This document shows, one piece after another, positions 15,441-42,484 of a DNA stretch of 64,000 nucleotides. Each line of letters opens with the position of its first letter. Position 1 is the stretch's first letter. Position numbers and translations under genes: made by a program. The notes beneath the pieces are model-generated. The model ran no database searches and was not told the origin of the DNA. It was given only the letters and a program-made list of their open reading frames with translations. The DNA is from Myxococcota bacterium (GTDB taxonomy: Bacteria > Myxococcota_A > Polyangia > Nannocystales > Nannocystaceae): assembly GCA_039028615.1 (NCBI GenBank), contig JBCCHT010000022.1:128001-192000 (forward strand), given 5' to 3'.

Positions 15441-15896
15441 ATGGCCGAAAGCTCGCGATCCCCCAGCGACGAGGACGACAACCACGACGACGCCCCGCCG
15501 GCCCGGGTGAGCCGCCACGTCAAACCGCTGGGTCCGCGCGTGCTGGTGCGCGTGGTCAAGTCGCCCGATCGCTCGGAGGCGGGCCTGTTCCTGCCCCAGG
15601 GCGTCAAGGATGGCCACGCGATGGCCCTGCTGGGCGAGGTCCTCGAGGTCGCGCGCACGATGCCCAAGACCGACTCGGGGCTCGACGATGACGACGACGG
15701 TGACGAGGACGACGACGATGCCCGCACCGACCGGGCCGACTTCGGCAAGAACGTCAGCGGCATCCCGCTGCACGCCAACGTGTTGTTCGAAAAGGAGCGC
15801 GGCGTCGTGATCCCGTGGGACGAGAGCCTGCGAATCATCGAGGTGCGCCACATCCTGGCCATCGTCGACATCATCAGCGAGGACGAGCTCCAGTGA
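15441..15896 (+). CDS. GroES/Cpn10-like protein with acidic insertion
   Basis: 'VKPLGPRVLVR', mobile-loop-like 'SEAGLFLP', 'GEVLEV', 'HILAIV'. Confidence 0.8.
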   Translation: MAESSRSPSDEDDNHDDAPPARVSRHVKPLGPRVLVRVVKSPDRSEAGLFLPQGVKDGHAMALLGEVLEVARTMPKTDSGLDDDDDGDEDDDDARTDRADFGKNVSGIPLHANVLFEKERGVVIPWDESLRIIEVRHILAIVDIISEDELQ

Positions 15897-18535
15897 AGGC
15901 CGCGCGCGGGTCCTTGGCCCTGGCGGCCGCGGCATCGCTGAGCCTGCTGTCGACGCCGGCCGGTGCTCAGGTTCCCGTCGCGCAAGACCGCCACCCCACC
16001 GACGGGGTCGACCGGGTGGTGCACGACGTCTCGGGCGAGGGCGATGCGACCAGCATCGAGCTCAACCCCGCCCTGCTGTCCGATGTGCAGGGCTTCGACC
16101 TATCGCTGATGGGCTACCGCAGCGTGTCCGACTTCACCCGGGGCACGGGCTTCGGTGGTTTCGTCGCGACCAACCTCGGCTTCGGCCTCGCCACGGGCTT
16201 TGGTGTGCAGGTGGTGCGTCCGGGCTTGCGCCTGGACGGGGCCGACTTCGACGCCGCGGCCAACCCCGACCTCACCAAGCTGAGCTTCGCGTTCGCGGGA
16301 GACTTCAGCGACAGCGCCTTCGGTGTCGGCGTGCACGGCGTGCGAGCCCAGGGGCAGTGGCTCCAGCGTCCCGACCTCGACGTCGGCGGCCTGGTGCGCA
16401 TCTTCAACTACGGCTCGGCCGGCTTCAACGCGCGCTTTTCCTCCGTCGACCTCGACAGCCAGGCTCTGCCCGCGCACATGTCGTTGACCGGCGAGCTGGC
16501 GCTGCGCCCCTTGGGCACGCACCACGTCGAGATTGCCGCCGCCGCCACCCAGCAGCTGCTCGTCAGCGAAAACGGCGAGAGCCCCCAGCGGGTCGACTTC
16601 TCCGGTTTCCTGCCCCGCGGACGCGTTGCGCTGCGCTACCAGGGCTGGGCGGTCAAGGCCGAGGTCGAGCAGATCCGCAGCGCGGTGCTCGACCCCACCA
16701 CCCTCGAGCGCGTGCGCGGCGAAAAGGCCCTACGCGGCGGCGTGGCCCTCGAGGGCTCGTGGGACTTCCTCACCGCGAGCGCGGGCATCCACGCCGGCAT
16801 CTCCGACGGCATCGATGGCGTGGGCTTCTCCGCCCGCCTGCATAGCCGCGAGCGTGGGCGCGTGTTCTGGCCGCGCCAGATCGACGCCGAGCGCCTCGAG
16901 CTGTCCGACCTCGGGGACGAGCGCAGCCTCATCGCCACGCTGCAGCGGCTCGACAGCGCCCGCAAGGCGGGGGACCGCAGCGTCATCGTCATCGACGCCC
17001 GCAGCACGGGCGCGGGCTGGGCCAGCCTTCACGAGGTCCGCGAGGCGCTCATCCGGGTCCGCAACGCGGGCGGCCACGTGTTCGCCTACGTCGAGAACGC
17101 CTCGCTCAAGGACTACTACGTCGCCAGCGTGGCCGAGCAGGTCTACGTGCACCCGGCCGGGGCCCTCGACGTCTACGGCATCTCCTCCACCACGCTGTAC
17201 CTGCGGGGGGCCCTCGACAAGCTCGGGGTCTCGGCCGAGGTCATCAAGGTCGACGAGTACAAGAGCGCGGGCGAGCGCTTCACCGAGACCGAGCCCACCG
17301 AGCCCGATCGGCAGCAGCGCACCGAGATTCAAAAAGACCACCTGGCGCAGATCGTCCACGACATCGCCCAGGCGCGCGGCTTGAGCCTGCACGACGTCCG
17401 CGAGCGCTTCGACGAGGCCCCCTGGGGACCCAACGCGGCGGTCGACGAGGGCCTGGTCGACGAGGTCATCTTCCGCGACCAGCTGCTCGATCGCATCTCC
17501 GAGCGCATCGGGGCCGACGTCGAGTTCGCCTCCTACTTCGATTCCAACCCCCGCGAGTACTGGGCCGAAGAGCCCTACGTGGCGGTCGTGCTGGTCGAGG
17601 GCGCCATCGTCGACGGCGGTAGCCGGACCATCCCGTTCTTCAACCTCGGCTTCGCGGGCGGCGACACCATCGCCAAGACCCTCCGCGACCTCCGGGAAGA
17701 CCGCTTCTGCCGGGGCGTGGTCCTGCGGGTCAACAGCCCGGGCGGCTCGGCCCTGGCCTCCGACGTCATCTGGCGCGAGGTCAAGCGCACCGCGGTGGCC
17801 CACGAGGCCGACCCCCGCTTCTCGGCCCCCATCGTCGTCTCCATGGGTGACGTGGCGGCCAGCGGCGGCTACTACGTGGCCATGGGCGCGCCCGAGGTGC
17901 TCGCCGACCCGATGACCATCACCGGTTCCATCGGCGTCATCTCGATGCACTTCGACGTCTCCGGCCTGCTCAAGACCCTGGGCATCAGCACCACCACCCT
18001 CAAGCAGGGCAAGAACGCCGAGATCGGTACCCCGTTTTCGCCCTATACCGAGGACCAGCGCACCCGCATCGAAGAGTCGATTCGGCGCACCTACGACCTG
18101 TTCCGCGAGCGCGTGGCCGATGGCCGCGGCATCACCACCGAGCGCGTCAACGAGCTCGGCCGCGGGCACGTCTACTCGGGCACCGATGCGGAGGCGGTCG
18201 GCCTGGTCGACTCCATGGGCGGTCTCTACGACGCCATCGAGCAGGTCCGTACCCGCGCCGGGTTGCCCAAGCGCAAGTCGCTGCGGATCAAGGTCCTGCC
18301 CGAGCAACGCACCCTGGTCGACCTGATCCTCGAGTCGGCCCGGGGCCCTCGAGGCACGGTGCGGGCGGTAGGTCGGGCCGTCGAGCGCCGCCGCGCCCGA
18401 GCCGACGGCGCCGCGCTGCGCGATGCTCTGCCGCTGGCCCTCGACGAGGCCCTGTCGCGCGTGCCGCTGTCGCTGATGTTCCTGCCGCAGGGGCAGGCCC
18501 AGGCCATCGCCCCCGGGCTCGTGCAGGTCGACTGA
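15893..18535 (+). CDS. sppA: Signal peptide peptidase SppA (S49), long form with N-terminal beta-strand-rich domain
   Basis: 'EYKSAGE', 'RVNSPGGSALAS', 'MGDVAASGGYY', 'TITGSIGV'; GTGA overlap with groES-like gene; signal peptide. Confidence 0.9.
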   Translation: MKAARGSLALAAAASLSLLSTPAGAQVPVAQDRHPTDGVDRVVHDVSGEGDATSIELNPALLSDVQGFDLSLMGYRSVSDFTRGTGFGGFVATNLGFGLATGFGVQVVRPGLRLDGADFDAAANPDLTKLSFAFAGDFSDSAFGVGVHGVRAQGQWLQRPDLDVGGLVRIFNYGSAGFNARFSSVDLDSQALPAHMSLTGELALRPLGTHHVEIAAAATQQLLVSENGESPQRVDFSGFLPRGRVALRYQGWAVKAEVEQIRSAVLDPTTLERVRGEKALRGGVALEGSWDFLTASAGIHAGISDGIDGVGFSARLHSRERGRVFWPRQIDAERLELSDLGDERSLIATLQRLDSARKAGDRSVIVIDARSTGAGWASLHEVREALIRVRNAGGHVFAYVENASLKDYYVASVAEQVYVHPAGALDVYGISSTTLYLRGALDKLGVSAEVIKVDEYKSAGERFTETEPTEPDRQQRTEIQKDHLAQIVHDIAQARGLSLHDVRERFDEAPWGPNAAVDEGLVDEVIFRDQLLDRISERIGADVEFASYFDSNPREYWAEEPYVAVVLVEGAIVDGGSRTIPFFNLGFAGGDTIAKTLRDLREDRFCRGVVLRVNSPGGSALASDVIWREVKRTAVAHEADPRFSAPIVVSMGDVAASGGYYVAMGAPEVLADPMTITGSIGVISMHFDVSGLLKTLGISTTTLKQGKNAEIGTPFSPYTEDQRTRIEESIRRTYDLFRERVADGRGITTERVNELGRGHVYSGTDAEAVGLVDSMGGLYDAIEQVRTRAGLPKRKSLRIKVLPEQRTLVDLILESARGPRGTVRAVGRAVERRRARADGAALRDALPLALDEALSRVPLSLMFLPQGQAQAIAPGLVQVD

Positions 18536-21386: not shown

Positions 21387-21497
21387 CCACGCCCGAAGAA
21401 CGGTGTCCGCGAGTCCGGCCCCTCGGACGACCGACGGCGCCCCCTCGTTCCCGAATCCAGCCGCTCGACGCTTCGGCATTTGCGGTATCGTGCCGCC

Positions 21498-22040
21498 ATG
21501 CGTCGACGCGTGTTTGCCCAGTCGGTGGTGATGACCTTCTCGATCGCCGAGCTCGCGTGTGCGGGCAGCGGCGGCGAGCCCCTGCCCGGCAACCCCCCGC
21601 CTCCGGCCGACGGCGGGGCCGCGCCCGCGGACGACGGCACGCCAGCTGGCGACGAAGGCAAGACGGTCAACCCTCCGCCTCCCGTGGACAGCGGTGCGCC
21701 AGCCGATGGCGGTGCCCCGGCCGATGGCGGTGATGGGGCAGCACCCCCCGCCGATGGCGCCGACACGACCGCGCCGACCACCAAGACCACCGTCGACCAG
21801 CGCGCAGACGGGACCTGCTGGGAGACGGTCGTCATCGACTGCCCGCCGGGCGTCGCCTGCAACCCTCCCCCGCCCAAGGAGGTCCCCTGCCCCGACGCCA
21901 TGCTGCCCGACGCCGAGGTGGCCGCCAACGTCGTCCGGCGTGACAACGGCAGCTGCTGGGAGATGAAGGACATCAAGTGCCCCGAGGGCGCCACGTGCAA
22001 CCCGCCCCCGCCGCGCCAGGTCAAGTGTCCGCCGAAGTAG
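21498..22040 (+). CDS. Secreted Cys/Pro-rich repeat protein (two C-W-E...C-P-x-G-x-x-C-N-P-P-P-P...C-P units)
   Basis: Signal/lipobox-like 'ELAC'; internal duplication. Confidence 0.75.
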   Translation: MRRRVFAQSVVMTFSIAELACAGSGGEPLPGNPPPPADGGAAPADDGTPAGDEGKTVNPPPPVDSGAPADGGAPADGGDGAAPPADGADTTAPTTKTTVDQRADGTCWETVVIDCPPGVACNPPPPKEVPCPDAMLPDAEVAANVVRRDNGSCWEMKDIKCPEGATCNPPPPRQVKCPPK

Positions 22041-22720
22041 CGACGAGCAAAGTCGCCCACGAGTGGCTGCGCCGGGTCGAAGCCGAGTACACCTCGGCCG
22101 CGATCACGCAAGAACTCGTGCTGTGGCTGATCCGGCTCGGTGCTCCGCCCGAGCTCATCACCGATGGCCTGCGCATCGTCGAAGACGAGCTCACCCACGC
22201 CAAGATGAGCCACGACGTGGCCCGAGCGGCCGGCCTCGACGAGCGCCCGCAGCTCGTTCAAGAGCGCCTGGGCCTGCCGCGGGACGCATCTCGCCCTCTG
22301 CTCGTGGACGTCGCCCTGCACGGGGTGGAGGTCTTCTGCCTGGGCGAGACGGTGGCCGTTCCGCTGTTCGTCGCCATGCGGGAGGGCTGCACGGTGCCCG
22401 TCGCCCGCGAGGCCCTCGACCGCATCGTCCGCGACGAAGTCCGCCACCGCGACTTCGGCTGGAGCCTGCTCGACTGGCTCGTCGAGGCCGCGGGCGACCC
22501 CATCCGCGAGCGCGTGCAGCAGGCCCTGCCCGGCATGCTCGCTCGAGTCCGCCGCAACTACGGGCAATCCGACTTCGACCAACGCCACGACGAGCCCACC
22601 GACACCGACGCCGCCTGGGGGCTCATCCCCACGCCGCGCTACGCCGAGATCCTCGAGCGCTGCATTACCCGGGACTACGCGCCACGCTTCGAACGCGTCG
22701 GCCTGACCCTGTCCCTGTGA
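22025..22720 (+). CDS. Ferritin-like diiron protein
   Basis: 'EAEYTS', 'DELTH', 'GETVA', 'DEVRH' give an E..ExxH..E..ExxH ligand set; GTG start overlapping upstream gene (start uncertain). Confidence 0.82.
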   Translation: MSAEVATSKVAHEWLRRVEAEYTSAAITQELVLWLIRLGAPPELITDGLRIVEDELTHAKMSHDVARAAGLDERPQLVQERLGLPRDASRPLLVDVALHGVEVFCLGETVAVPLFVAMREGCTVPVAREALDRIVRDEVRHRDFGWSLLDWLVEAAGDPIRERVQQALPGMLARVRRNYGQSDFDQRHDEPTDTDAAWGLIPTPRYAEILERCITRDYAPRFERVGLTLSL

Positions 22721-22726
22721 GCCGGG

Positions 22727-24136
22727 TCAGCCCAGACCATCGTTGCCGCCCGGACACAGCGTGACGGTGTAGTTCATCGTGTTCGGGTTCTCCGTGCTCG
22801 GATCCGGCGTCGCGCAAGTGAAGGTGCTCGTGGCGTCGTCGAAGGGGAAGCTATAGGCAGTGGGGCATGCCTCTTTGACAAAGCGCGCCCAGGGCTCGGC
22901 CAGCGCCGTCCACTCCGGGTTGGTGTCGTAGCAGGTGAAGCCCGGCGGAACGGGCAGCGTGCTGCCGTCGATCATCCACTCGGGGCAGCCACAGCAGGTC
23001 GGGTTGGCCGCGCCCATGTTGTAGCAAGAGTTGGGGTTGAAGCCGTTGCAGCCGTACAGGTCGGTGACCATGCCCTGGCCCGGCACCGCCCCCGAACAGT
23101 TCACGGGCGCGCCCGCCGTGTTGGCGGTGTAGATGCACAGCTCGTCCGCCGTCCACCAGCCCAATGGAGCGCCGCACACCGTCTCGATGGTCGAGCCGCC
23201 GAAGGTGATGGCCGTGCCGCAGACCAGCCCGGCCCCGCACTCGTCGTCGCTCGTGCAGGCCGTGCCCCCGGGGGCGACCGCCTGCAGCAGCGTGCTCTGG
23301 TCGGTGGACATGCCGTCGAGCTCGATCTGCGGGTCGAAGTTCCACGAGCACCCGAGCAGCCCGCTGGCGCTCCCCGTAGCCGACCCCGCCGTCTCGCAGG
23401 TGTAGGGGTCGTCGCCTCCCTGCGTCCCGCCGTCGGGGCCCATCGAGATCGGGATGTTGGCCCCGTTGATGATCGAGATGTCGTAGAAATCCGAGCCGTC
23501 GAAGGAGAACGTGAACTCGGCCAGGCTCGCCGGTCCCTGCGGTCCGACTCCGTTCGCACACGGCTGCACCACCGTCATGCCCGCCTCGGACACGCCACAC
23601 ATCGCGGTCTGACACCCGCTGCCGTCGCTCTCACACTGGGTGCTGGCGTAGAGGTTGCCGCTCCACTTGACGTTGATCGTCTGGCCCGACGCCGCCCCGC
23701 TCGTGATGGCCTGCATGATCGGCGGCGCCGTCAGCTCGTAGGTGACCGAGTCTCCCGCCGCGAGCACGGGGCTGCCCGAGCTCGGCGCAGGGAAGTCCCA
23801 AAAGCACCCGGGGGGGTCTCGCGTGGTCAGGCAGGAGGTCCCGTCGGGGCACGAATCGCCCGCGCCGCAGTCCTCCACGTAGCCGCCGTTGATCCCCACA
23901 ACCACGGTCTGCCCCGCGCACTCGCTGGTCACGGTGACCACCCGATCGCCGTTGGCCGGATCGATCCCCGAGCCGCCCTCGGCGGTCTCGTCCGCGCTGG
24001 CCGACGAGCCATCGGTGGACACCGAGCTGTCGGTGGCCGCCGACTGGGTGTCGGAGCCTCCCGTGTCATCGCTGCAGCCGGCGCTCCCGATCGTCACCAG
24101 CAAGCAACCGACTCCCCATCCGCTACGCCACCGCAT
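22727..24136 (-). CDS. Thaumatin-like (PR-5 type) lipoprotein, possible beta-1,3-glucan-active protein
   Basis: 'PASLAEFT', 'DFYDISIINGANIPISM', 'KEACPTAYSFPFDDATSTFTC', 'YTVTLCP'; lipobox 'SAGC'. Confidence 0.88.
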   Translation of the reverse strand: MRWRSGWGVGCLLVTIGSAGCSDDTGGSDTQSAATDSSVSTDGSSASADETAEGGSGIDPANGDRVVTVTSECAGQTVVVGINGGYVEDCGAGDSCPDGTSCLTTRDPPGCFWDFPAPSSGSPVLAAGDSVTYELTAPPIMQAITSGAASGQTINVKWSGNLYASTQCESDGSGCQTAMCGVSEAGMTVVQPCANGVGPQGPASLAEFTFSFDGSDFYDISIINGANIPISMGPDGGTQGGDDPYTCETAGSATGSASGLLGCSWNFDPQIELDGMSTDQSTLLQAVAPGGTACTSDDECGAGLVCGTAITFGGSTIETVCGAPLGWWTADELCIYTANTAGAPVNCSGAVPGQGMVTDLYGCNGFNPNSCYNMGAANPTCCGCPEWMIDGSTLPVPPGFTCYDTNPEWTALAEPWARFVKEACPTAYSFPFDDATSTFTCATPDPSTENPNTMNYTVTLCPGGNDGLG

Positions 24137-24221
24137 TGCACGATGATAGCGCCCGGCGGGCGGCCAATGGCGCGCATCGGTGCCCCGCGTTCGAGGGGTT
24201 GCGATCGGGACTCGCGTCGAG

Positions 24222-24938
24222 TCAGCGCACCAACATGCGCTCGGCGGCGTCGTCGGAGATGGCCAGCTGCGACGCGACCTCGATGAACAACGCGCGCTCC
24301 CGCTCCCCTTCGGCGCTCGCCCGAACCAGCGGCACCAGGGCCATCAGCGCGATACTGCGTTCCTCGCCGTCCATGGCCAGCAATTGAGCCACGATGCCCT
24401 CGAGCGCAGGCGGCTCGTGGCGCAGGGCCAGCAGCGCGGGGCGGCGCCCCTCGGCGACGGGCAGTCGCTCGGTCAACGCATCGAGCTCTTCCGCCTCGGC
24501 CGGATCGAGCTGACCGTCGAGATTGGCCAGGATGGCCGCGAACCCGGCGACGAGCTCGGAACGCTTGTGTGCTTGCGCCAGCCACAGTGCGCGAAGACGC
24601 GCAGCCTCGTCGGTGGGCAGCCCCAGCTTGGTGGCGAGCTCGTCGTGCACCTGTGTTTCTTGTTCGCTGCCCTCGCCGTCGGCCAGCGCCATGCGCCACG
24701 CCTTCTCGAGGATGGGCTCGACGAAGAACGGCATGGGCGGCGCCAGCGAGTCGAGATGCGCCGACAAACGCTGTCGATCGGCCAGCAGCTCGATCCACGC
24801 GGTCGCGTCCTCTTGGCGGAGGCGCTCGTCGAGCATCCACAGCACCCGATCCCACTCCCCGGCCTCCAAGATCCCATCGGCATGGGCCACGAGACCGCAC
24901 GCGGCGAGGGTCCACTCTTGCTCGGGTGAAAGTGGCAT
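24222..24938 (-). CDS. TerB-like protein with tandem domains
   Basis: 'VAHADG...E', 'MALADGEGSEQE', 'NLDGQLDPAE', 'RERALF..VASQLAI'. Confidence 0.75.
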   Translation of the reverse strand: MPLSPEQEWTLAACGLVAHADGILEAGEWDRVLWMLDERLRQEDATAWIELLADRQRLSAHLDSLAPPMPFFVEPILEKAWRMALADGEGSEQETQVHDELATKLGLPTDEAARLRALWLAQAHKRSELVAGFAAILANLDGQLDPAEAEELDALTERLPVAEGRRPALLALRHEPPALEGIVAQLLAMDGEERSIALMALVPLVRASAEGERERALFIEVASQLAISDDAAERMLVR

Positions 24939-25022
24939 GGCGATCAGGCTAGCAAGGGGAGCGCAGGCGAGCCACGATCGTATTTGTCAGGCTATCCTTT
25001 GCCGCGACGAGGGCATGAATCC

Positions 25023-26111
25023 GTGACGACGACGAGTGCCAGAATGATGCGCCGCGAGGATGCGCCCGCCGTGGCCCGCATCGTTGCCGCCCGGCTCCGA
25101 TCGGGACGCGAGGTCGACCTCGATCTCGTCGCACGACGCCTCGTTCGTTCGTACTTCGATCACCCCTGGCCCGACCCCGAGATTCGCCCCTGGATCTGCG
25201 AGACCAGCACCGGGCAAATCATCGGATTTCTGGGCGTGACGGCCCGTCCACTGCGGTGGGGCCCGAGAACGCTGCGAGCCGCGATCATCGGCAACCTGGT
25301 CGTCGACGAGGAGCACGGCGGCGCCGGAGCGAGTCACACGATCATCAACGAGTTTCTGCAGGGCCCCCAAGACCTGGCGATCAGCGACCACGCCCTCGAC
25401 GTCACGCGAAAGATTTCAGACCGCTTCGGCGGCGCCACCATTCGCCTGCTCAGCCTCGACTGGGATCTCCAGCTGCGCCCCGCCACCATCACCCTCGATC
25501 GCCGGATCGGCCGCCGCTTCAATCGCATGGCCCAAGGGTTGGCGCCCGTCGCTAACGCCATCGACACCCTTGGGCGTCGCTTCGAGCGCGGGCCCTGGTG
25601 GGTCGAGCGCAACGAATGCGAAGTCCGCCCCCTGACCATGGCGCGGCTCGCCGAGCTCGTCTCGCACCTGGGCGGCGACTCCATCACCCCCATCTACGAC
25701 GCCGAGTCGCTCGCGTGGATCATGGCCACCCCTCGTGGCCACGGCGAAGGGCTGCGCGCCCGCGAGGTCCTCAACGAACGCGGACACACCCTGGGCTGCT
25801 TCGTGCACTACGTCGACCGCGACTCCGAGGTGCTGCACCTGGGCGCGGAACTCGGCGCCGGCGAGCGGGTCTTCGAGTGCCTCGTCGCCGATGCGATCTC
25901 GGCCAATGCCCGGGCCCTCAACGGGCGGATTTGCCCCCCGCTCATGCGAGAGATGTCGGCCAAGGGCGTGCGCTATCAGACCAACAGCTGGTTCATCCTG
26001 CACACCAAGCGCCCCGAGATCGTCGCCGCCTTCCACGGAGGCGACACGTATTTCTCGCGGCTCGACGGCGAGCGTTGGTCGATGCGCTTCGTCGACATCG
26101 CCGACGAGTGA
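25023..26111 (+). CDS. GNAT-fold acyltransferase-like protein
   Basis: 'GQIIGFLG', 'IGNLVVDEEHGGAG' (motif A-like); start uncertain (25023 or 25044). Confidence 0.65.
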   Translation: MTTTSARMMRREDAPAVARIVAARLRSGREVDLDLVARRLVRSYFDHPWPDPEIRPWICETSTGQIIGFLGVTARPLRWGPRTLRAAIIGNLVVDEEHGGAGASHTIINEFLQGPQDLAISDHALDVTRKISDRFGGATIRLLSLDWDLQLRPATITLDRRIGRRFNRMAQGLAPVANAIDTLGRRFERGPWWVERNECEVRPLTMARLAELVSHLGGDSITPIYDAESLAWIMATPRGHGEGLRAREVLNERGHTLGCFVHYVDRDSEVLHLGAELGAGERVFECLVADAISANARALNGRICPPLMREMSAKGVRYQTNSWFILHTKRPEIVAAFHGGDTYFSRLDGERWSMRFVDIADE

Positions 26112-26121
26112 GAAACCGTGT

Positions 26122-27021
26122 TCAGGCGGTGCTACTCGCGGCCACCCGAGGCGTGAACAGCCGCGCAATCCACTTGGGGTTGAAGCCGGAGAACGCGAAC
26201 GAGCTGGAGATGTGCACGTAGCTCCACAGGAAACACTGGAGCACCCAAAACTCGTAGGTCAGCGCGGAAAACACCCCAATGAGCGGGGTGAACACCAGAA
26301 AGAAGGCACTGACTGCGGCAGTTTGCCCCACGAACTTCACCCGCTGCTTCGTGTCGCGAAGTTGGTAGAGCGGCAGGTAGATCCACACGAACAAGTGATA
26401 GAAGGCCGCGTCGAAGAAGTGCACCTCGGTGAACAGCACGATGCACGAAGTCGCGACACCGGCCACTTCGAATCCGATGACATCGAGCAGGGCATTTCGT
26501 TCGAGTGACTTGGCCACTGGGACCAGGCAGATCACGAAGGCAACGAAACTCAGTCCGAGCACGCCGAACGCCATTACGAACGGAATCTCGACGACAGAGG
26601 TGACCCGGGGGTCGCGGATCATGATGGTGCAGAAGCCCACGAAGGCCAGCACCACGCGCGAAATCAACAGTCGCGTCTGCGCCGGATCGAGCGAACCCGC
26701 CTTGCGCCCCACCACCATGTAGCCCTCCGTCAACGCGTGATGTGAGCCGAAATACACATACAGAGCGAGTGGAGGAAGCAGCAGGAACGGCGGGAGCATC
26801 AGCACCGGAGGCAGCACGACCAGCGCGATGAAACCGGCGAGCACCAGAAACGAAATCTGCCCGGTCACCACCGGTTTGACGCGCCGACGCCCGTACCACC
26901 CCGCCAAAACGTAGTGTCCGAACAGTACGGCGACGAAGAGCGAAAAGTACGACCACGGATCGACCAGCCATCGTAGACCGAGGATGCTGGCGACACTGGC
27001 GATTCGAATTAGCGTGAACAT
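26122..27021 (-). CDS. Polytopic membrane protein with several membrane-embedded His residues
   Basis: Multiple hydrophobic helices; 'FGHY', 'GSHHALTE', 'FYHLF', 'YVHI'; RBS-like ggagg/gaggg upstream of MFTLIR. Confidence 0.7.
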   Translation of the reverse strand: MFTLIRIASVASILGLRWLVDPWSYFSLFVAVLFGHYVLAGWYGRRRVKPVVTGQISFLVLAGFIALVVLPPVLMLPPFLLLPPLALYVYFGSHHALTEGYMVVGRKAGSLDPAQTRLLISRVVLAFVGFCTIMIRDPRVTSVVEIPFVMAFGVLGLSFVAFVICLVPVAKSLERNALLDVIGFEVAGVATSCIVLFTEVHFFDAAFYHLFVWIYLPLYQLRDTKQRVKFVGQTAAVSAFFLVFTPLIGVFSALTYEFWVLQCFLWSYVHISSSFAFSGFNPKWIARLFTPRVAASSTA

Positions 27022-27179
27022 TGACCCCTCGCCTCCCCCTCGGCGCAACTGGTCACGCATTCACTTTTCATCACCGGTCGGAGTAGCTGAAAGCAGCAGG
27101 AGCGTCCAGCACAAATCCCCTCGACGCGGCTCGCGAAGCTTGCCGATCCGATCAGGGTGTGGTCCCTTAAACGCTCACC

Positions 27180-29252
27180 TTGCACTGGCGCAACCGCACT
27201 CCAATCGAAACTCGACGGTTCCTGTTCTCGCTGCTGCGACCGCACGTTCCTGGGCTTGCGGCCGACCTGAGCAACGCGGCGCAGAACACCGATAACGTGC
27301 CACTGCCCGCACTATGCGAAGCACTGGGACAGTACTTCGGGCGTCCGCCCATCGACACGCCGTCTTCGCTCGCCGACTTCCTCGCGCGTGCCGACGAGCT
27401 GTCGGCGGAGCATGCTGCGCTCCCCCCTCGGGAGGCGGCTCGAGTGAGTGCCGACGGGGGTTGGTCGCCGCGAGCCAACGGCGAAATCACACTGGTTGAA
27501 ATCCTTCGTAAGCGCGCCCGCGAGCAACCTTCGCGCGTGGCGTTCACGTGGCTCGCAGCCGGCGAGCGCGAGGACGGGCAGCTCACGTACGCGCAGCTCG
27601 AGGAGCGCGCCCGGGCCATCGCGGCCGAGCTGCAGTCGCGCACCGAGCCCGGCGACCGCGTGCTGCTGCTGTACGAAGGCGGCCTGCAATTCGTCGAGTC
27701 GTTCTTCGGCTGTCTGTTCGCCAAGGTCGTCGCCGTCCCGGCCTACCCGCCCGACCCCTACCGGCTGCAGCGGAGCCTCGATCGCCTGCTGGGCATCGTG
27801 CGTGACGCGGAGCCCACGCTCATCCTCACCACCGCCTCCATCATCGCCATTCGCGATGGCCTGAAGCTCGACCTCGGGCAAGACCTCGCCGGACTCGAGT
27901 GGCTCGCCACCGATGCGGTGGACACCGCGCGCAGCGAGCAGTGGGAGGCCCGCCTCGCGGTCCCGGCCGACCTGGCCATGATCCAGTACACCTCGGGGTC
28001 CACTGGGACCCCCAAGGGGGTCATGGTCAGCCACGCCAACCTCCTCTACAACGAGGAGATGATCCACCAGGCCTTCGAGACCCACCCGGGCTCGGTGGTG
28101 GTGGGCTGGCTGCCGCTGTTCCACGACATGGGTCTCATCGGCAACGTGCTGCAGCCGGTCTATACCGGCTTCCACAGCGTGCTGATGTCCCCGCTGGACT
28201 TCCTCAAAAAGCCCCTGCGGTGGCTGCAGGCGATCAGCAACTACGAGGCCACCATCGGCGGCGGCCCGAACTTCGCCTACGAGCTGTGCATTCGAAAGGT
28301 GAGCGACGAAGACCTCGCGTCGCTGAAGCTGTCGCAGTGGCAGGTCGCGTTCAACGGCGCCGAGCCCATCTTCGACGACACCCTCGAGCGCTTCCGGGCC
28401 CGCTTCGCCCCCTGTGGCTTCCGACGCCAGGCCTTCTACCCGTGCTACGGGTTGGCCGAGACCACGCTCATCCTGACGGGCGGAGCACGCAACACCGAGC
28501 CGGTCTGCGTGCGCGTCGACGCCGAAGCCCTCGGCCATGGCCGCGCCGTGCTCGTCGAAGGCGAGGGCAACGACAGCGTCACCCTGATGGGAAGCGGCCG
28601 CCAGCTCTTCGCGCAGGACTATCGCATCGTCGATCCCGAGACCAAGGCGGCCTGCGAAGACGGTCGCGTCGGCGAGATCTGGGCCAGCGGCCCCGCCATC
28701 GCCCAGGGCTACTTTCGCCGCGAAGACGCCACCGCCGAGGCCTTCGGACACCGCGTCGCGGGCGACGACGGCACGGGCCCGCAGTTTCTACGCACGGGTG
28801 ACCTCGGCTTCGTCCTCGACGACGAGCTTTTCGTCACCGGGCGGATCAAGGACGTCATGATCCTCCGCGGGCGTAACCACTACCCGCAGGACCTCGAGCG
28901 CACCATCGCCGGCTCGCACGCGGCGCTTCGGCCGGGCTCCACCGCGTGCTTCACCGTTCGTCACGACGGCGAGCAAAAACCGGTGGCGGTGCAGGAGTTC
29001 AAAAAGGGCACCGCTCGGGAGACTCACGCCGACATCTTCGGCTCCGTGCGCGAGGCGGTCGCCCGCGACCACGGCCTGCGCCTCCACGACGTGCTGCTCA
29101 TTCCCGCCGGCACCATCCCCAAGACCTCCAGCGGCAAGATCCGCCGCCGCAAGTGCATGAACATCTACCTCGCGCGCCTCCGGGCCGCGCCCGACGACGC
29201 CGTCGGGACGCTGATGCGAGCGCCGAAACCAACCGAGGCCGATCATGGCTGA
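27180..29252 (+). CDS. Fatty acyl-AMP ligase (FAAL)
   Basis: 'QYTSGSTGTPKG', 'WLPLFHDMGL', 'GGPNFAYELC', 'CYGLAE', 'RTGDLG', 'GRNHYPQD', 'KTSSGKIRR'; start uncertain. Confidence 0.93.
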   Translation: MHWRNRTPIETRRFLFSLLRPHVPGLAADLSNAAQNTDNVPLPALCEALGQYFGRPPIDTPSSLADFLARADELSAEHAALPPREAARVSADGGWSPRANGEITLVEILRKRAREQPSRVAFTWLAAGEREDGQLTYAQLEERARAIAAELQSRTEPGDRVLLLYEGGLQFVESFFGCLFAKVVAVPAYPPDPYRLQRSLDRLLGIVRDAEPTLILTTASIIAIRDGLKLDLGQDLAGLEWLATDAVDTARSEQWEARLAVPADLAMIQYTSGSTGTPKGVMVSHANLLYNEEMIHQAFETHPGSVVVGWLPLFHDMGLIGNVLQPVYTGFHSVLMSPLDFLKKPLRWLQAISNYEATIGGGPNFAYELCIRKVSDEDLASLKLSQWQVAFNGAEPIFDDTLERFRARFAPCGFRRQAFYPCYGLAETTLILTGGARNTEPVCVRVDAEALGHGRAVLVEGEGNDSVTLMGSGRQLFAQDYRIVDPETKAACEDGRVGEIWASGPAIAQGYFRREDATAEAFGHRVAGDDGTGPQFLRTGDLGFVLDDELFVTGRIKDVMILRGRNHYPQDLERTIAGSHAALRPGSTACFTVRHDGEQKPVAVQEFKKGTARETHADIFGSVREAVARDHGLRLHDVLLIPAGTIPKTSSGKIRRRKCMNIYLARLRAAPDDAVGTLMRAPKPTEADHG

Positions 29253-30255
29253 GACCGCCGACCCCGAGACCCCGCTCTCCGACGAAGCCAACGCGTCGAT
29301 CGGACGCCGCAGCGGCGGCATCGAGCGCCTCGATGCCCAGTTCGCCTACGTCACCTCGTTGTCGCCGCTGCTGATGACGATCTTGGCGTTCGCGCTGCTG
29401 CCCTTCGGGTTCATGGTCACGTGGGTCGAGGTGATGCTCTTCCTGGTGATGTACGTGCTCGTGATGATCGGGCTCGAGGTCGGCTACCACCGCTACTTCT
29501 CGCATCACCCCTTCAAGGCGTCGCGACCGGTCAAGATCGGCCTGGCGGTCCTGGGCTCCATGGGCTTTCAGGGCCCCGTGATCTGGTGGGCGGCCACGCA
29601 TCGCCGACACCACCGCTACTCCGATCACGATGGCGACCCGCACTCCCCTCGCCGCACCGGTCCCGGCTGGCGCGGGGCGCTACGCGGGCTCTACGAGGGT
29701 CACATGGGCTGGCTCTTCGACAAGAACCGAGCCCGCCCCGACAACTGGTGGATCTACGCCAAAGACCTCTACGCCGACCCCGACATCTTCAAGATCCACT
29801 ACCACTACTTCTACTGGATGCTCTTCGGACTGGTGTTCCCCGCCGTCGTGGGCGGCCTGATCCACGGCACCTTGAAGGGCGCGTTCATGGGCCTTTTGTG
29901 GGGTGGCTTCGTGCGGGTGTTCTTCGGCGATCACTTCATTCGCACCGTGAACTCGGTGTCGCATGTCGTGGGCTCGCGCGCCTTCGAGACCACCGACAAT
30001 AGCCGCAACAACTTCTGGCTCGCGGTGCCGACCCTGGGCCAAGCCTGGCACCACAACCATCACGCGTTCCCGGCCATCGCCACCACCAAGATCGAGTGGT
30101 GGCAGGTCGACCTCGGCTACTGGGTCATCCGCTCGCTCGAGCTGGTCAAGCTCGTCTCGCGGGTCCGCCTGCCCACGCCGCAATCCATCGCCGCCAAGCG
30201 CATCGGCGCCGGGGCGGCCGCATCCCCCCAAGGAGAATCGAATGACGTCGCCTAA
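29245..30255 (+). CDS. Membrane fatty-acyl desaturase / possible acetylenase (JamB-like)
   Basis: His boxes 'HRYFSH', 'HRRHH', 'HHNHH'; 'DGDPHSP'; 'WWQVDLGY'; overlaps FAAL stop. Confidence 0.9.
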   Translation: MAETADPETPLSDEANASIGRRSGGIERLDAQFAYVTSLSPLLMTILAFALLPFGFMVTWVEVMLFLVMYVLVMIGLEVGYHRYFSHHPFKASRPVKIGLAVLGSMGFQGPVIWWAATHRRHHRYSDHDGDPHSPRRTGPGWRGALRGLYEGHMGWLFDKNRARPDNWWIYAKDLYADPDIFKIHYHYFYWMLFGLVFPAVVGGLIHGTLKGAFMGLLWGGFVRVFFGDHFIRTVNSVSHVVGSRAFETTDNSRNNFWLAVPTLGQAWHHNHHAFPAIATTKIEWWQVDLGYWVIRSLELVKLVSRVRLPTPQSIAAKRIGAGAAASPQGESNDVA

Positions 30256-30505
30256 CGACCGCACGCAGGAGATCACGGACTGGCTGGTCAAGACGGTCGC
30301 CAAGACCCTCGAGATTCCCGCGTTCGAGATCGACACCACCGCCTCCTTCGAGCGCTACGGCATGGACTCTTCGGCCGCGGTGCACATCGTGGGCGAGCTC
30401 GAGAAGTGGCTCGGTCGCAAGCTGCCGAGCAACCTGGCGTATCAGTACTCGTCGATCTCCGCGCTGGCGCAATTCATCGCGTCCTCCGAGCAGGCCGCGA
30501 GCTAG
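30242..30505 (+). CDS. Acyl carrier protein
   Basis: 87 aa; 'FERYGMDS' phosphopantetheine Ser; RBS aaggag; overlaps desaturase stop. Confidence 0.92.
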   Translation: MTSPNDRTQEITDWLVKTVAKTLEIPAFEIDTTASFERYGMDSSAAVHIVGELEKWLGRKLPSNLAYQYSSISALAQFIASSEQAAS

Positions 30506-39748: not shown

Positions 39749-42484
39749 TCAGTCGGAGATGATCCAGGTCTCGCCGGCCAGCGCCATCATGTTGGGCTCC
39801 TGGCCCCACCACAGCGCGACCGGCAGGTGCTTGAGCGCGGTGAGCATGCCCAGCGGCACCGCGCTGCGCAACGCCATCATGGCCGGGGTGGCGCTGCCGA
39901 AGGCCGATGCTCCGGTACGACCCAGCGGCGAAGGGATGTCGAAGCCGAACATCGCCCGCAGGTTCTCGATGGGGCGTCGAGCGGCGGGTACGATTTCCAC
40001 CGTGCCTTCGTCGGGCTCGAGGCCGGCGATGGCCCGGGCCCGCAGCACCGCCTCTCGCACGCCGCCGTAGTCGTCGACCAGGCCCTCCTCGATGGCTCGC
40101 ACGCCGGACCACACGCGGCCCCGCGCCACTCGATCGGCCTGCGCCAGCGTCATCGAGCGGGCTTTGGCCACGCGTGAGAGGAACTGCCCGTAGACCATCT
40201 CGACGTCGGCCTGGGCCGCGGCGCGCTCGTCTTCGTCCATGGGCCGCAGCCACGAGCGCATGCCCGCCCGGCGGCCGAAGTCTTCCTCGTCGACGGTGAT
40301 GCCCAGCCGCTCGAGCGCGCCGGACACGTCCACCTTGGGGAAGAACACGCCGATGCTGCCCGTGAAGGTCGTCGCGTCGGCGTAGATGTACTGGCCCGAG
40401 GTCGCGATGTAGTAGCCCCCGCTCGCGCACGCGTTGCCCATGGAGATGACGACCGGCTTGACCTTGCGGACCAGGTCGAGCTCGCGGGCGATGGCGTCGG
40501 CCGTGCCCACGTCGCCGCCGAGGCTGTTGACCCGCACCACCACCGCGCGGACGCTGGGGTCCTTGCGCAGGCGCTCGATCTCCTTGGTCAGGGTGCGATC
40601 GCCGGCCACCGTGCGGTCGATGATGGGGATGGTGAAGCTGTCGCCGCGGACGAGGTCACCCTCGATGAGCAGCACCGCGATGCGCGGGGGCGGGCCGAAG
40701 GCCATGCGGTGCTGCTGCGACTGTTGCGGGGTCTCGATGCGAATGCGTCGGCCCAGCCACTTCTCGAGCTTGGCGTCGAGCTCGTCGGGGAAGGCCAGCT
40801 CGTCGACGATGCCGCGCTCCAGCGCCTCTGGGGAGGACATCGGCTGGTCGTCGATCCACTCTCGGACCACCCGCACGTCCTCGCCGCGGTCGCGCGCGAT
40901 CATCCGCAGCACGTGGTTCCAGACGTCGGCGTACAGGTGATGCCGCTGCGAGGCCACGGGCGCCGAAGCGGTGCTGCGGTGGGCTTTCTCGGGCCACGCT
41001 TTGTACTCGGCCACCCGCACGAACTCGGGCACGACCCCCAGCTTCTCGAGCAGCTCGCCGTAATACAGCGTCTGCGTCCGCATGCCGGTCATCTCGAGAC
41101 CCAGGTGCGGGTGCACGATGATGCGATCGGCCGCGCTGGCGAGGAAGTAGCTGCGCAGTGCGCCGCCGTTCATGTACACGATGACCGTGCCGCGACGGTT
41201 GCGGACCCTCAGCATCGCCTCGCGGATTTCCTCGATCTGGGCGAAGTCGAAGCCCATCGAGCGGGTCTCGAGCAGCACCGTGCCGCGACGCTCCGCCGCG
41301 TCGTCGAGCTCGTCGAGCACCGCCATCATGCCGCGGTCGCCGTCGTAGCGAGCCAGGGCGAGCTTGGCGACCACGCGCGGCCGCGATGCCACCGCGGGGT
41401 ACCGATCTTGCGAGATGCGTAGGCGCGCCGCCGCCCCGTCGACCCCGAAGCCGCTGCCGTTGCGGGCGTTGATCGACGCCAGCGGCGCGACCGCGAAGCC
41501 CACATTGGCGAAGTTGATCTCCACCCCCGCCTGGACCCGGGCCGCGACGCGAGCGGCGGCCAGGTTGTCCTCGAAGACGATCGGGTTGAAGCGCATCATC
41601 TCGGCCTCGGCGAACAGCCGCACGCCCCCAAACGAGGTCATGATGCGCCCGCGAGGGTCGGCCTCGTTGATCCGAAAGCGACGCAGCGCGCCGGGAATGG
41701 CCGGGGCAAAGCGAGCCCCCACCGCGACCTCGAAGGCCGGCGTGCCCAAGGGGCGGATGGCGATTTCCGGGTCGATGACGACCGGCTGGATCTCGGCCTC
41801 TTCCCGACCGGTACGCGGCATGTTGATCGCCCGCCCCACCAGGCCCATGGCCAAGAACCGGCTGGGCCAGTAGCTCACCGCCAGATCGAACTGGTTGGTC
41901 CCGTGGGCGTGGAAGTTCCCCGAGGAGACCGAGCGCGAGACACCAAAGCCGATGGACAGCCGGTCGAGACCGCGGGCGAGGCTCTTGGCGCGCGGGCGAA
42001 AGACCCGGACCCAGGAGCCCAGCGGAATGGAGGTGGCGAAGGTGACCTTGTGGAACAGGTCGTCCGTGCCCTGCGGATCGGCCAGGTCCTCGCCGTCGTC
42101 CGACTGCGGCCCCTCGGGCTGGAACGGCAGACCCAGCTGATAACCCAGGCCCAGCGCGATGAGGCGCAGCGGCACGGGGATGCCGATGAAGGCCCCCACC
42201 CCGCTGCCCCTACGACGGCGCTGTTGCCCCATCAACGAGAAATCGATCACCCCGTTGATGCCGTCGAGAAAGCCGAGGTTGGCCGGGTTGGTCACCGTCG
42301 ACGCGCCGTCGCCCTCGCCGGCCACGACCGTGTAGACCCGATCGTTGTCCCGCGTGATCGGTCGCGCCTCGCCCTCGAGCGGGTTGGCGTGGGTCGGGCC
42401 GGGCGCCAGGGTGAGGGCTGTGCCCGCGATGGCAGCCAGTCTCGCCAGGCGTCGCGCGAGCGCAGAGATCATCCCTTGATCCAT
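39749..42484 (-). CDS. sppA: Second long-form SppA (S49) with N-terminal beta-rich domain
   Basis: 'EYKAWPE', 'RVNSLGG', 'MGNACASGGYY', 'TGSIGV', 'RGRVWSG'; signal peptide; 'NPANL'. Confidence 0.88.
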   Translation of the reverse strand: MDQGMISALARRLARLAAIAGTALTLAPGPTHANPLEGEARPITRDNDRVYTVVAGEGDGASTVTNPANLGFLDGINGVIDFSLMGQQRRRRGSGVGAFIGIPVPLRLIALGLGYQLGLPFQPEGPQSDDGEDLADPQGTDDLFHKVTFATSIPLGSWVRVFRPRAKSLARGLDRLSIGFGVSRSVSSGNFHAHGTNQFDLAVSYWPSRFLAMGLVGRAINMPRTGREEAEIQPVVIDPEIAIRPLGTPAFEVAVGARFAPAIPGALRRFRINEADPRGRIMTSFGGVRLFAEAEMMRFNPIVFEDNLAAARVAARVQAGVEINFANVGFAVAPLASINARNGSGFGVDGAAARLRISQDRYPAVASRPRVVAKLALARYDGDRGMMAVLDELDDAAERRGTVLLETRSMGFDFAQIEEIREAMLRVRNRRGTVIVYMNGGALRSYFLASAADRIIVHPHLGLEMTGMRTQTLYYGELLEKLGVVPEFVRVAEYKAWPEKAHRSTASAPVASQRHHLYADVWNHVLRMIARDRGEDVRVVREWIDDQPMSSPEALERGIVDELAFPDELDAKLEKWLGRRIRIETPQQSQQHRMAFGPPPRIAVLLIEGDLVRGDSFTIPIIDRTVAGDRTLTKEIERLRKDPSVRAVVVRVNSLGGDVGTADAIARELDLVRKVKPVVISMGNACASGGYYIATSGQYIYADATTFTGSIGVFFPKVDVSGALERLGITVDEEDFGRRAGMRSWLRPMDEDERAAAQADVEMVYGQFLSRVAKARSMTLAQADRVARGRVWSGVRAIEEGLVDDYGGVREAVLRARAIAGLEPDEGTVEIVPAARRPIENLRAMFGFDIPSPLGRTGASAFGSATPAMMALRSAVPLGMLTALKHLPVALWWGQEPNMMALAGETWIISD

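Follow-up and report, generated by a model that had tools for sequence, protein, structure and literature searches.

The window, a 64,000-nt stretch of DNA of a Myxococcota bacterium (G000:C22:128001-192000; genome of 12.3 Mb, 68% GC), carries five genes that, as we strongly infer, travel together. Genes encoding fatty acyl-AMP ligase (FAAL), membrane desaturase and acyl carrier protein (ACP) form a cassette, and next to it are situated genes for a tandem-GNAT acyltransferase and for a four-histidine membrane protein of an unnamed family. Tentatively, and a little short of an even chance, we propose that the five genes specify a pathway to an unsaturated fatty amide, the chain being more likely an alkene than an alkyne and being released by the GNAT protein. 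As family knowledge and the available part of 10.1101/291195 indicate for FAALs, the ligase would adenylate a medium-to-long fatty acid and load it onto its dedicated holo-ACP. The desaturase would then oxidise the ACP-bound chain, an alkene being a likelier outcome than a terminal alkyne, and transfer of the chain onto an amine by the tandem GNAT would give the amide. These three steps are deduced from what is known of the protein families. The four-His membrane protein is guessed to perform a metal-dependent tailoring step or to help with export; acceptor and chain length are guesses as well, and since distant relatives of the GNAT occur among polysaccharide genes, an amino sugar is a lead for the acceptor. 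The components of the locus are as follows.

25023..26111, plus strand: tandem-GNAT acyltransferase of ~360 aa (start uncertain: 24984, 25023 or 25044), proposed acyl-ACP release/transfer enzyme
26122..27021, minus strand: helical membrane protein of an unnamed family, 299 aa, proposed metal-dependent tailoring enzyme
27022..27443: divergent intergenic region between membrane gene and FAAL gene, likely carrying both promoters
27444..29252, plus strand: FAAL, 602 aa from GTG 27444
29245..30255, plus strand: membrane di-iron-type desaturase, 336 aa, His boxes intact
30242..30505, plus strand: free-standing ACP, 87 aa, with GMDS motif

Gene identities, folds, conserved residues and tree position are reported below as observed. 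The genes present (TPR kinases, an ECF sigma factor) suggest a myxobacterium. Among the sequencing runs listed, X1, a possible source of the DNA, is a marine metagenome, and none is of RNA. Reading of the open reading frames (ORFs) bore out the first-pass annotation in that FAAL, desaturase and ACP genes lie on the plus strand with overlaps of 8 bp and 14 bp and that the ACP carries GMDS. Pfam assigns them to AMP-binding (2e-69), FA_desaturase (2.5e-18) and PP-binding (1.4e-15), respectively, and the top NCBIfam matches of the ligase are FAAL families, every one of them under its curated cut-off. The window contains 193 ORFs of at least 120 aa, many of which are alternative frames; among the 47 ORFs scanned with Pfam no polyketide synthase (PKS), nonribosomal peptide synthetase (NRPS) or thioesterase domain was found, as the annotation had stated. 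Its FAAL start at TTG 27180 is probably wrong. GTG 27444 is the most likely start, because the GC content at third codon positions is 0.73 for 27180-27443 versus 0.89 for the remaining FAAL ORF, the N-terminal extension is unsupported by six FAAL homologues, and a GGAGG is located upstream of 27444. An additional N-terminal FAAL domain was ruled out. No sigma-70 consensus was found by a promoter scan. Neither a phosphopantetheinyl transferase (PPTase) nor a small electron donor was identified near the cassette; both would be supplied in trans.

The cassette had been described as stand-alone, which is not supported, as the GNAT and membrane protein genes appear linked to it. Linkage was taken indirectly, from homologues whose longest contigs are of identical size in bp, and these homologues are not independent of each other by kinship. 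Longest contigs of 13281, 19057, and 42470 bp are common to the desaturases P0003, P0128, and P0004, the GNAT proteins P0131, P0132, and P0135, and the membrane proteins P0123, P0122, and P0147, respectively. Desaturase and GNAT homologues share further contigs of 11546 bp (P0006, P0134) and 7652 bp (P0005, P0136), and GNAT and membrane homologues share contigs of 2803 and 9034 bp. Altogether, 5 out of 15 GNAT homologues are linked to a desaturase (five of the six closest, none of the nine distant ones), as are three of the five membrane homologues checked, for which the size was visible. A jitter null gave three matches or fewer in all 200,000 draws. The linkage is kept at 67-69% identity of the desaturase and 56-60% identity of the GNAT. 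A relative of ~88-90% identity over 22000-30503, known from run X2 of another study, was recovered in separate pieces, one of which bridges the GNAT end, the membrane gene and the FAAL start; since the flanks are kept too, it shows synteny only.

No Pfam or NCBIfam match was obtained for the GNAT protein in the scans of the window proteins; Acetyltransf_9 is found in 14-27% of the members of its Atlas neighbours at 0.97. The AlphaFold2 (AF2) model (pLDDT 85.6) matches human NMT1 in Foldseek with an E-value of 1.6e-12, and VIA gives Z 19.9 to the Eis-like protein 2hv2 (rmsd 3.5, 283 aligned) and Z 19.7 to the N-myristoyltransferase (NMT) 8fbt (rmsd 5.3, 295 aligned). According to the model, the protein consists of two GNAT domains in one chain with an NMT/Eis-like double fold. 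Identity to solved tandem GNATs is ~10%, and sequence searches of the PDB returned nothing significant for the GNAT or the membrane protein. Situated two genes upstream of the FAAL gene, the tandem GNAT is the likely release enzyme, with an acyl-ACP donor and an amine acceptor suggested by context and modelled fold. Transfer by a GNAT from acyl-ACP to a peptide amine has a precedent in the available text of PMC10088813, and a GNAT goes unmentioned in the main text of PMC11837247 as far as available.

A comparable arrangement was read directly in locus L096 (225-6953), where genes for a PPTase and a tandem GNAT are divergent from a FAAL-desaturase-ACP-desaturase-desaturase series; its GNAT is distant kin of the window protein (hhalign 95%, E 3e-8). 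One of the L096 desaturases carries YQNNHH, and this locus is itself a candidate pathway to a polyunsaturated or alkynyl amide. The first-pass annotation had called product release unexplained and the pathway undescribed. The latter still appears so: no publication on a FAAL-desaturase-ACP-GNAT cassette was found in the literature searched, which covered subscription journals thinly and excluded supplements (the clade may be contained in the trees that PMC8406139 shows in Fig. S1). As to the former, the tandem GNAT is a candidate that had been missed.

For the membrane protein, 374 relatives were retrieved at E<=0.001. Among 140 aligned rows H36, H94, and H209 are invariant (100%) and H270 is present in 99%, accompanied by the conserved E99 and E185; judged by the conservation of these four His and two Glu, a metal site is likely. 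Pfam and NCBIfam gave no match for the protein and no consistent family among the 140 aligned members. The AF2 model (pLDDT 94.9) has no Foldseek match at E<=0.001, and the best VIA match (Z 6.0, to rhodopsins) corresponds to helical-bundle background, so that such weak matches of the modelled fold would indicate neither kinship nor a new fold. Neither an internal repeat nor a profile similarity to the desaturases was seen in the protein, and no plasmid match was found for it or for P0157. The protein may resemble the four-His membrane dioxygenases Brp/Blh, whose profile PF15461 is not among the Pfam matches of the 140 members. With G000 counted in, the family occurs in 2 of 401 genomes of a phylum sample and in 1 of 401 of a class sample. 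A distant homologue, L169 (G253:C216:54-824), is located at a contig edge with its upstream context cut off. The membrane gene itself (26122-27021) has a GC content of 60% compared to 64-70% in its neighbours, for which its hydrophobic composition is probably the cause.

With such conserved residues, the membrane protein could itself release or export the product, e.g., as a metal hydrolase of the His/Glu type, in which case the GNAT could be an Eis-like acetyltransferase for tailoring or self-protection. Its four His and two Glu would fit a metal site, its gene and that of the FAAL diverge from one intergenic region, and the GNAT fold is tied between Eis-like and NMT proteins (Z 19.9 versus 19.7). 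However, five desaturase homologues show linkage to the GNAT and three to the membrane protein, and L096 pairs a tandem GNAT with a cassette while no match to the membrane family occurs in its 7 kb. We regard this division of labour as distinctly unlikely and retain release by the GNAT.

The desaturase was compared with VatB (P0305, source's name), with a CamB-type enzyme of the same 90% cluster, with a pair resembling PgnE and PgnF (from L015, a locus of Pseudomonas danubii, orthology to PgnE/PgnF being inferred from gene order) and with DesC-type enzymes. In the alignment VatB reads VVDNSILSINS and WQNNHH, the window enzyme FGDHFIRTVNS and WHHNHH, and DesC VFHCTWFVNS. It had been remarked that the window enzyme and JamB have Asp where ordinary delta-9 desaturases have His. 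The Asp of the VatB/CamB-type enzymes does sit in the column of Asp229, but the His of DesC is found one column further on, where the window enzyme retains it as His230, the Asp229 column being occupied by Phe/Trp in DesC-type enzymes. The substitution of Asp for His as first stated is thus ruled out, the comparison having been one column off. Asp229 occurs in 26 of 347 aligned rows, of which 11 belong to the window clade, 11 to JamB-type enzymes, two to polyyne-cluster enzymes (PgnE-like and PgnF-like) and two to stand-alone genes. Arg233 is confined to the window clade (11 of 347 rows); the usual residue is Trp (228 of 347), and JamB-type enzymes have Leu. The column corresponds to the Trp of SCD1 NATWLVNS, which we take to line the substrate tunnel of SCD1. 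A third-box Gln (QxxHH) is present in 16 of the 347 rows, and the window enzyme, with HxxHH, is not among them. Of the JamB-type motifs D-N-S-I-L-S-I-N-S and QxxHH it shares the Asp, with His230 in place of Asn230 and no Gln. This motif criterion was derived here from the VatB/CamB sequences, as no published one was found; likewise, no sequence rule predicting acetylenase activity was found in the literature searched. In its available text, PMC9828172 reports HxxHH/QxxHH boxes in cay/pgn desaturases and gives no rule for alkyne formation.

The phylogeny that the first-pass annotation had proposed as a check was computed with IQ-TREE (LG+G4) for 95 rows picked from 347, approximately unbiased (AU) tests being run on 40 rows; TtuB was left out. 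The best trees put the desaturase outside the DesC-type enzymes, and also outside the JamB clade. It belongs to a 10-row clade (support 100/99) marked by Asp229 and Arg233, which lies inside a 44-row group (93/91, unstarred) apart from the JamB-type clade; both are contained in a 91-row non-DesC clade (95/96). A grouping of the window clade with the JamB (VatB/CamB) clade is rejected (p=0.00017). As far as sequences can tell, the window desaturase is not a JamB orthologue and has a clade of its own, in which Asp229, common to JamB and PgnE, would have arisen separately.

A grouping with housekeeping enzymes, in contrast, is not rejected (p=0.10), although long branches affect this test. Together with the database name of the homologues, 'stearoyl-CoA desaturase', this agrees with an ordinary delta-9-type lipid desaturase that has an acyl-loading accessory and serves membrane lipid remodelling. 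That role is highly improbable nonetheless: the best tree nests the enzyme in the non-DesC clade, its distribution is patchy, its translation is coupled to that of a dedicated FAAL and ACP, and the genome has two separate DesC-like paralogues. Identity to these paralogues is 35-38%, compared to 44-45% to VatB and the PgnE-like protein and 33% to DesC. Among 72 further genomes of the order, five of them congeners, no close copy of the desaturase was found; five of the 72 have matches, at 42-49% only.

Ligase and carrier protein were compared in the same way. The FAAL is 44% identical to the FAAL in the position of VatA and 50% to that of L184; the ACP is 32% identical to VatC (P0318, source's name) and 49% to the L184 ACP. 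The FAAL motif LPLFHDMGLIGNV differs from VPHFHDYGLVDG of the VatA-type enzyme, and the two are not joined in the FAAL tree. Its motif LFHDMGLIGNV resembles that of longer-chain FAALs, chain-length prediction from it being weak according to the available section 4.2 of PMC11837247. A 3-residue indel common to the window and VatA-type FAALs is no sign of kinship, as L012, L171, L173, and L176 have it too and the window and VatA-type enzymes are not joined in the FAAL tree.

Gene order was surveyed in 40 neighbourhoods that contain genes for a FAAL, a desaturase and an ACP. Some of them are near-duplicates from a single cyanobacterial genus, and three (L085, L171, and L173) are loose groupings; 12 loci, being the window's own or overlapping larger regions, were dropped before the count. 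Two scans for related loci had none of the closest relatives among the matches listed. A methyltransferase of the cyclopropane-synthase type (CMAS) is encoded in 15 and a ketosynthase (KS) in 18 of the 40 neighbourhoods, and Pfam confirmed the CMAS in all six cases tested. Within the 44-row clade that holds the window enzyme, the four loci whose context is known (L007, L008, L010, and L176) all have a CMAS; the nearest desaturase relatives with readable context thus adjoin CMAS-type methyltransferases. In fischerazole biosynthesis an olefinic precursor is the substrate of the CMAS-type FshF, whereas the available text of PMC13548996 leaves open what the desaturase of that cluster does. Because a CMAS, implying alkenes, occurs in 15 of the 40 neighbourhoods, the order FAAL-desaturase-ACP does not diagnose an alkyne. 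Nor are the three genes alone new, since PMC8406139, in its available part, already counts 4,990 jamABC-like cassettes, Deltaproteobacteria included.

The first-pass annotation had inferred an ACP-bound alkynyl or unusually desaturated chain and a resemblance to JamABC/TtuABC. What remains of this is a cassette for ACP-templated desaturation, the gene order, and membership of a broad group related to JamB, PgnE and PgnF; the alkyne is not established, in view of the rejected JamB orthology, the missing third-box Gln and the CMAS-adjoining relatives. On balance an alkyne product is rather unlikely and an alkene is the more likely outcome. It is conceivable, though unlikely, that the same five genes yield an alkynyl amide by means of an independently evolved acetylenase. 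The rarity of Asp229, common to the window clade, JamB-type and PgnE/PgnF-like enzymes, the restriction of Arg233 to the window clade, the jamABC gene order and the lack of a CMAS gene that would use an alkene agree with it; the AU rejection of a grouping with JamB, the absence of Asn230 and Gln, the greater closeness of FAAL and ACP to a CMAS-linked cassette than to VatA/VatC, and the want of an acetylenase sequence rule in the literature searched do not. Less likely again, it is tempting to speculate that Asp229/Arg233 mark an independent second lineage of ACP-dependent acetylenases, the alkynyl chain being released by the NMT-like GNAT onto an amine of a sugar, amino acid or protein and then oxidised by the four-His metalloenzyme, which would make this protein the first of its undescribed family with a function.

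The cassette might also feed a PKS or other acceptor in trans, e.g., a multimodular PKS on C26, with its two neighbours as mere passengers of synteny. The KS frequency in the neighbourhoods, PKS clusters on C26, C14, and C15 of the genome, and distant GNAT kin that occur without the cassette are compatible with this, but linkage survives at the identities given above with no close copy in the 72 other genomes of the order, and adenylation-like genes (N-terminal sequence only) are already part of the C26 cluster itself, so that we consider it very unlikely. The C26 cluster (G000:C26, ~9000-55000) is large and multimodular, with P450, HMG-CoA-synthase-like and adenylation-like genes.

Several observations weigh against the proposed amide pathway. 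The GNAT and membrane genes are transcription units separate from FAAL-desaturase-ACP, and their linkage rests on matching contig sizes, with FAAL, ACP and the flanks (TerB, kinase) not part of the comparison. Among the loci examined, a GNAT of the window family was met in one locus only outside the window's own. Three distant GNAT kin from the same family of genomes have no FAAL, desaturase or ACP match in the 3.7-20 kb around them, and rhizobial kin (~30%) are located in a surface-polysaccharide cluster in the one locus read. G253 has the distant membrane homologue and no GNAT of the window family in its genome. Support of the 44-row clade is only 93/91, and no CMAS gene is present in the window, which leaves the argument for an alkene to kinship.

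Some further loci are worth recording. The cyanobacterial cassettes L021, L191, and L198 combine a FAAL with four tandem desaturases and an ACP, a JamB-type (DN/QNNHH) member being present in L191 and L198. L012 and L176 share one desaturase-ACP-CMAS-desaturase-amidohydrolase-FAAL-hydrolase cluster, which belongs to the genome of a marine gammaproteobacterium in one case and, flanked by insertion sequence elements, to a plasmid of Burkholderia gladioli in the other. The acidobacterial FAAL-desaturase-ACP loci L028 and L038 have an aminotransferase-like gene upstream and a short-chain reductase gene downstream (seen in L028), which suggests a sphingoid-like lipid. In L171 and L173, from the related genomes G049 and G052, a radical-SAM-like gene is situated directly upstream of FAAL-ACP, which in case of L173 is fused to a PKS. 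In the window, on the plus strand at 21480-22720, a lipoprotein-like ORF with a Pro/Cys-rich repeat precedes the gene for a 247-aa protein that has ferritin-like ExxH motifs and a weak DUF455 match; the two, which are 2.3 kb away from the GNAT gene, may be a di-iron oxidase pair. A bacterial thaumatin-domain protein is encoded at 22727-24136 on the minus strand (PF00314 1e-19; NCBIfam LegT 7e-45, far under cut-off), and two long peptidase S49 (SppA-like) genes are found at 15815-18535 and 39749-42484.

If correct, exit through a GNAT would be a new way out, as characterised alkyne cassettes pass the chain to a PKS/NRPS or a thioesterase. Should amines receive an alkyne tag from the GNAT, click-tagged amides would be accessible by a genetically encoded route that needs no PKS. 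Moreover, a membrane family of at least 374 members, with a likely metal site, no name and no clear match to a solved fold, acquires with this locus a first setting in which it can be tested, and the desaturase clade offers, with Asp229, a natural test of what distinguishes acetylenases from desaturases. Counts of jamABC-like gene order as alkyne capacity may be too high, because many such cassettes adjoin cyclopropane-synthase-type genes.

Compared with known systems, the locus would work like a JamABC-type loading and desaturation cassette from outside the JamB clade, the new parts being the exit enzyme, the unnamed membrane family and the distinct desaturase clade. With JamABC, CamABC, VatABC, and TtuABC it shares the order FAAL-desaturase-ACP and an Asp in column 229 (TtuB being outside the comparison), and the VatABC locus L186 is 44%, 44%, and 32% identical in FAAL, desaturase and ACP, respectively. 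Unlike these, the window desaturase forms a separate clade with His230 instead of Asn, HxxHH instead of QxxHH, and Arg233, the pocket motif of the FAAL differs, and a linked GNAT and four-His membrane gene take the place of a downstream PKS. The polyyne clusters pgn, cay, and ccn likewise rely on FAAL/ACP-templated desaturation, and the PgnE-like protein of L015 (44%) also has Asp-His at 229-230; the polyyne cassette is defined, however, in the available parts of PMC8406139 and PMC9828172 by seven genes, with three desaturases, a thioesterase and a rubredoxin beside FAAL and ACP, whereas the window has one desaturase and neither a thioesterase (47 ORFs scanned) nor a rubredoxin was found nearby in a search of ORFs of at least 60 aa. 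Long-chain amine-acylating GNATs, namely the streptomycete GNAT that transfers from acyl-ACP to a RiPP (ribosomally synthesised, post-translationally modified peptide), KspN/PhaN, and the NMT fold, share the GNAT fold and provide a precedent for long-chain transfer, including that from acyl-ACP (PMC10088813, available text), but no RiPP precursor was recognised at the window and identity to the solved tandem GNATs is low, as given above. The FAAL-desaturase-ACP-CMAS cassettes (L007, L008, L184, and, by its parts, the fischerazole fsh cluster) contain the same three genes, with a desaturase 45% identical in case of L007, and differ from the window by their CMAS methyltransferase and PKS.

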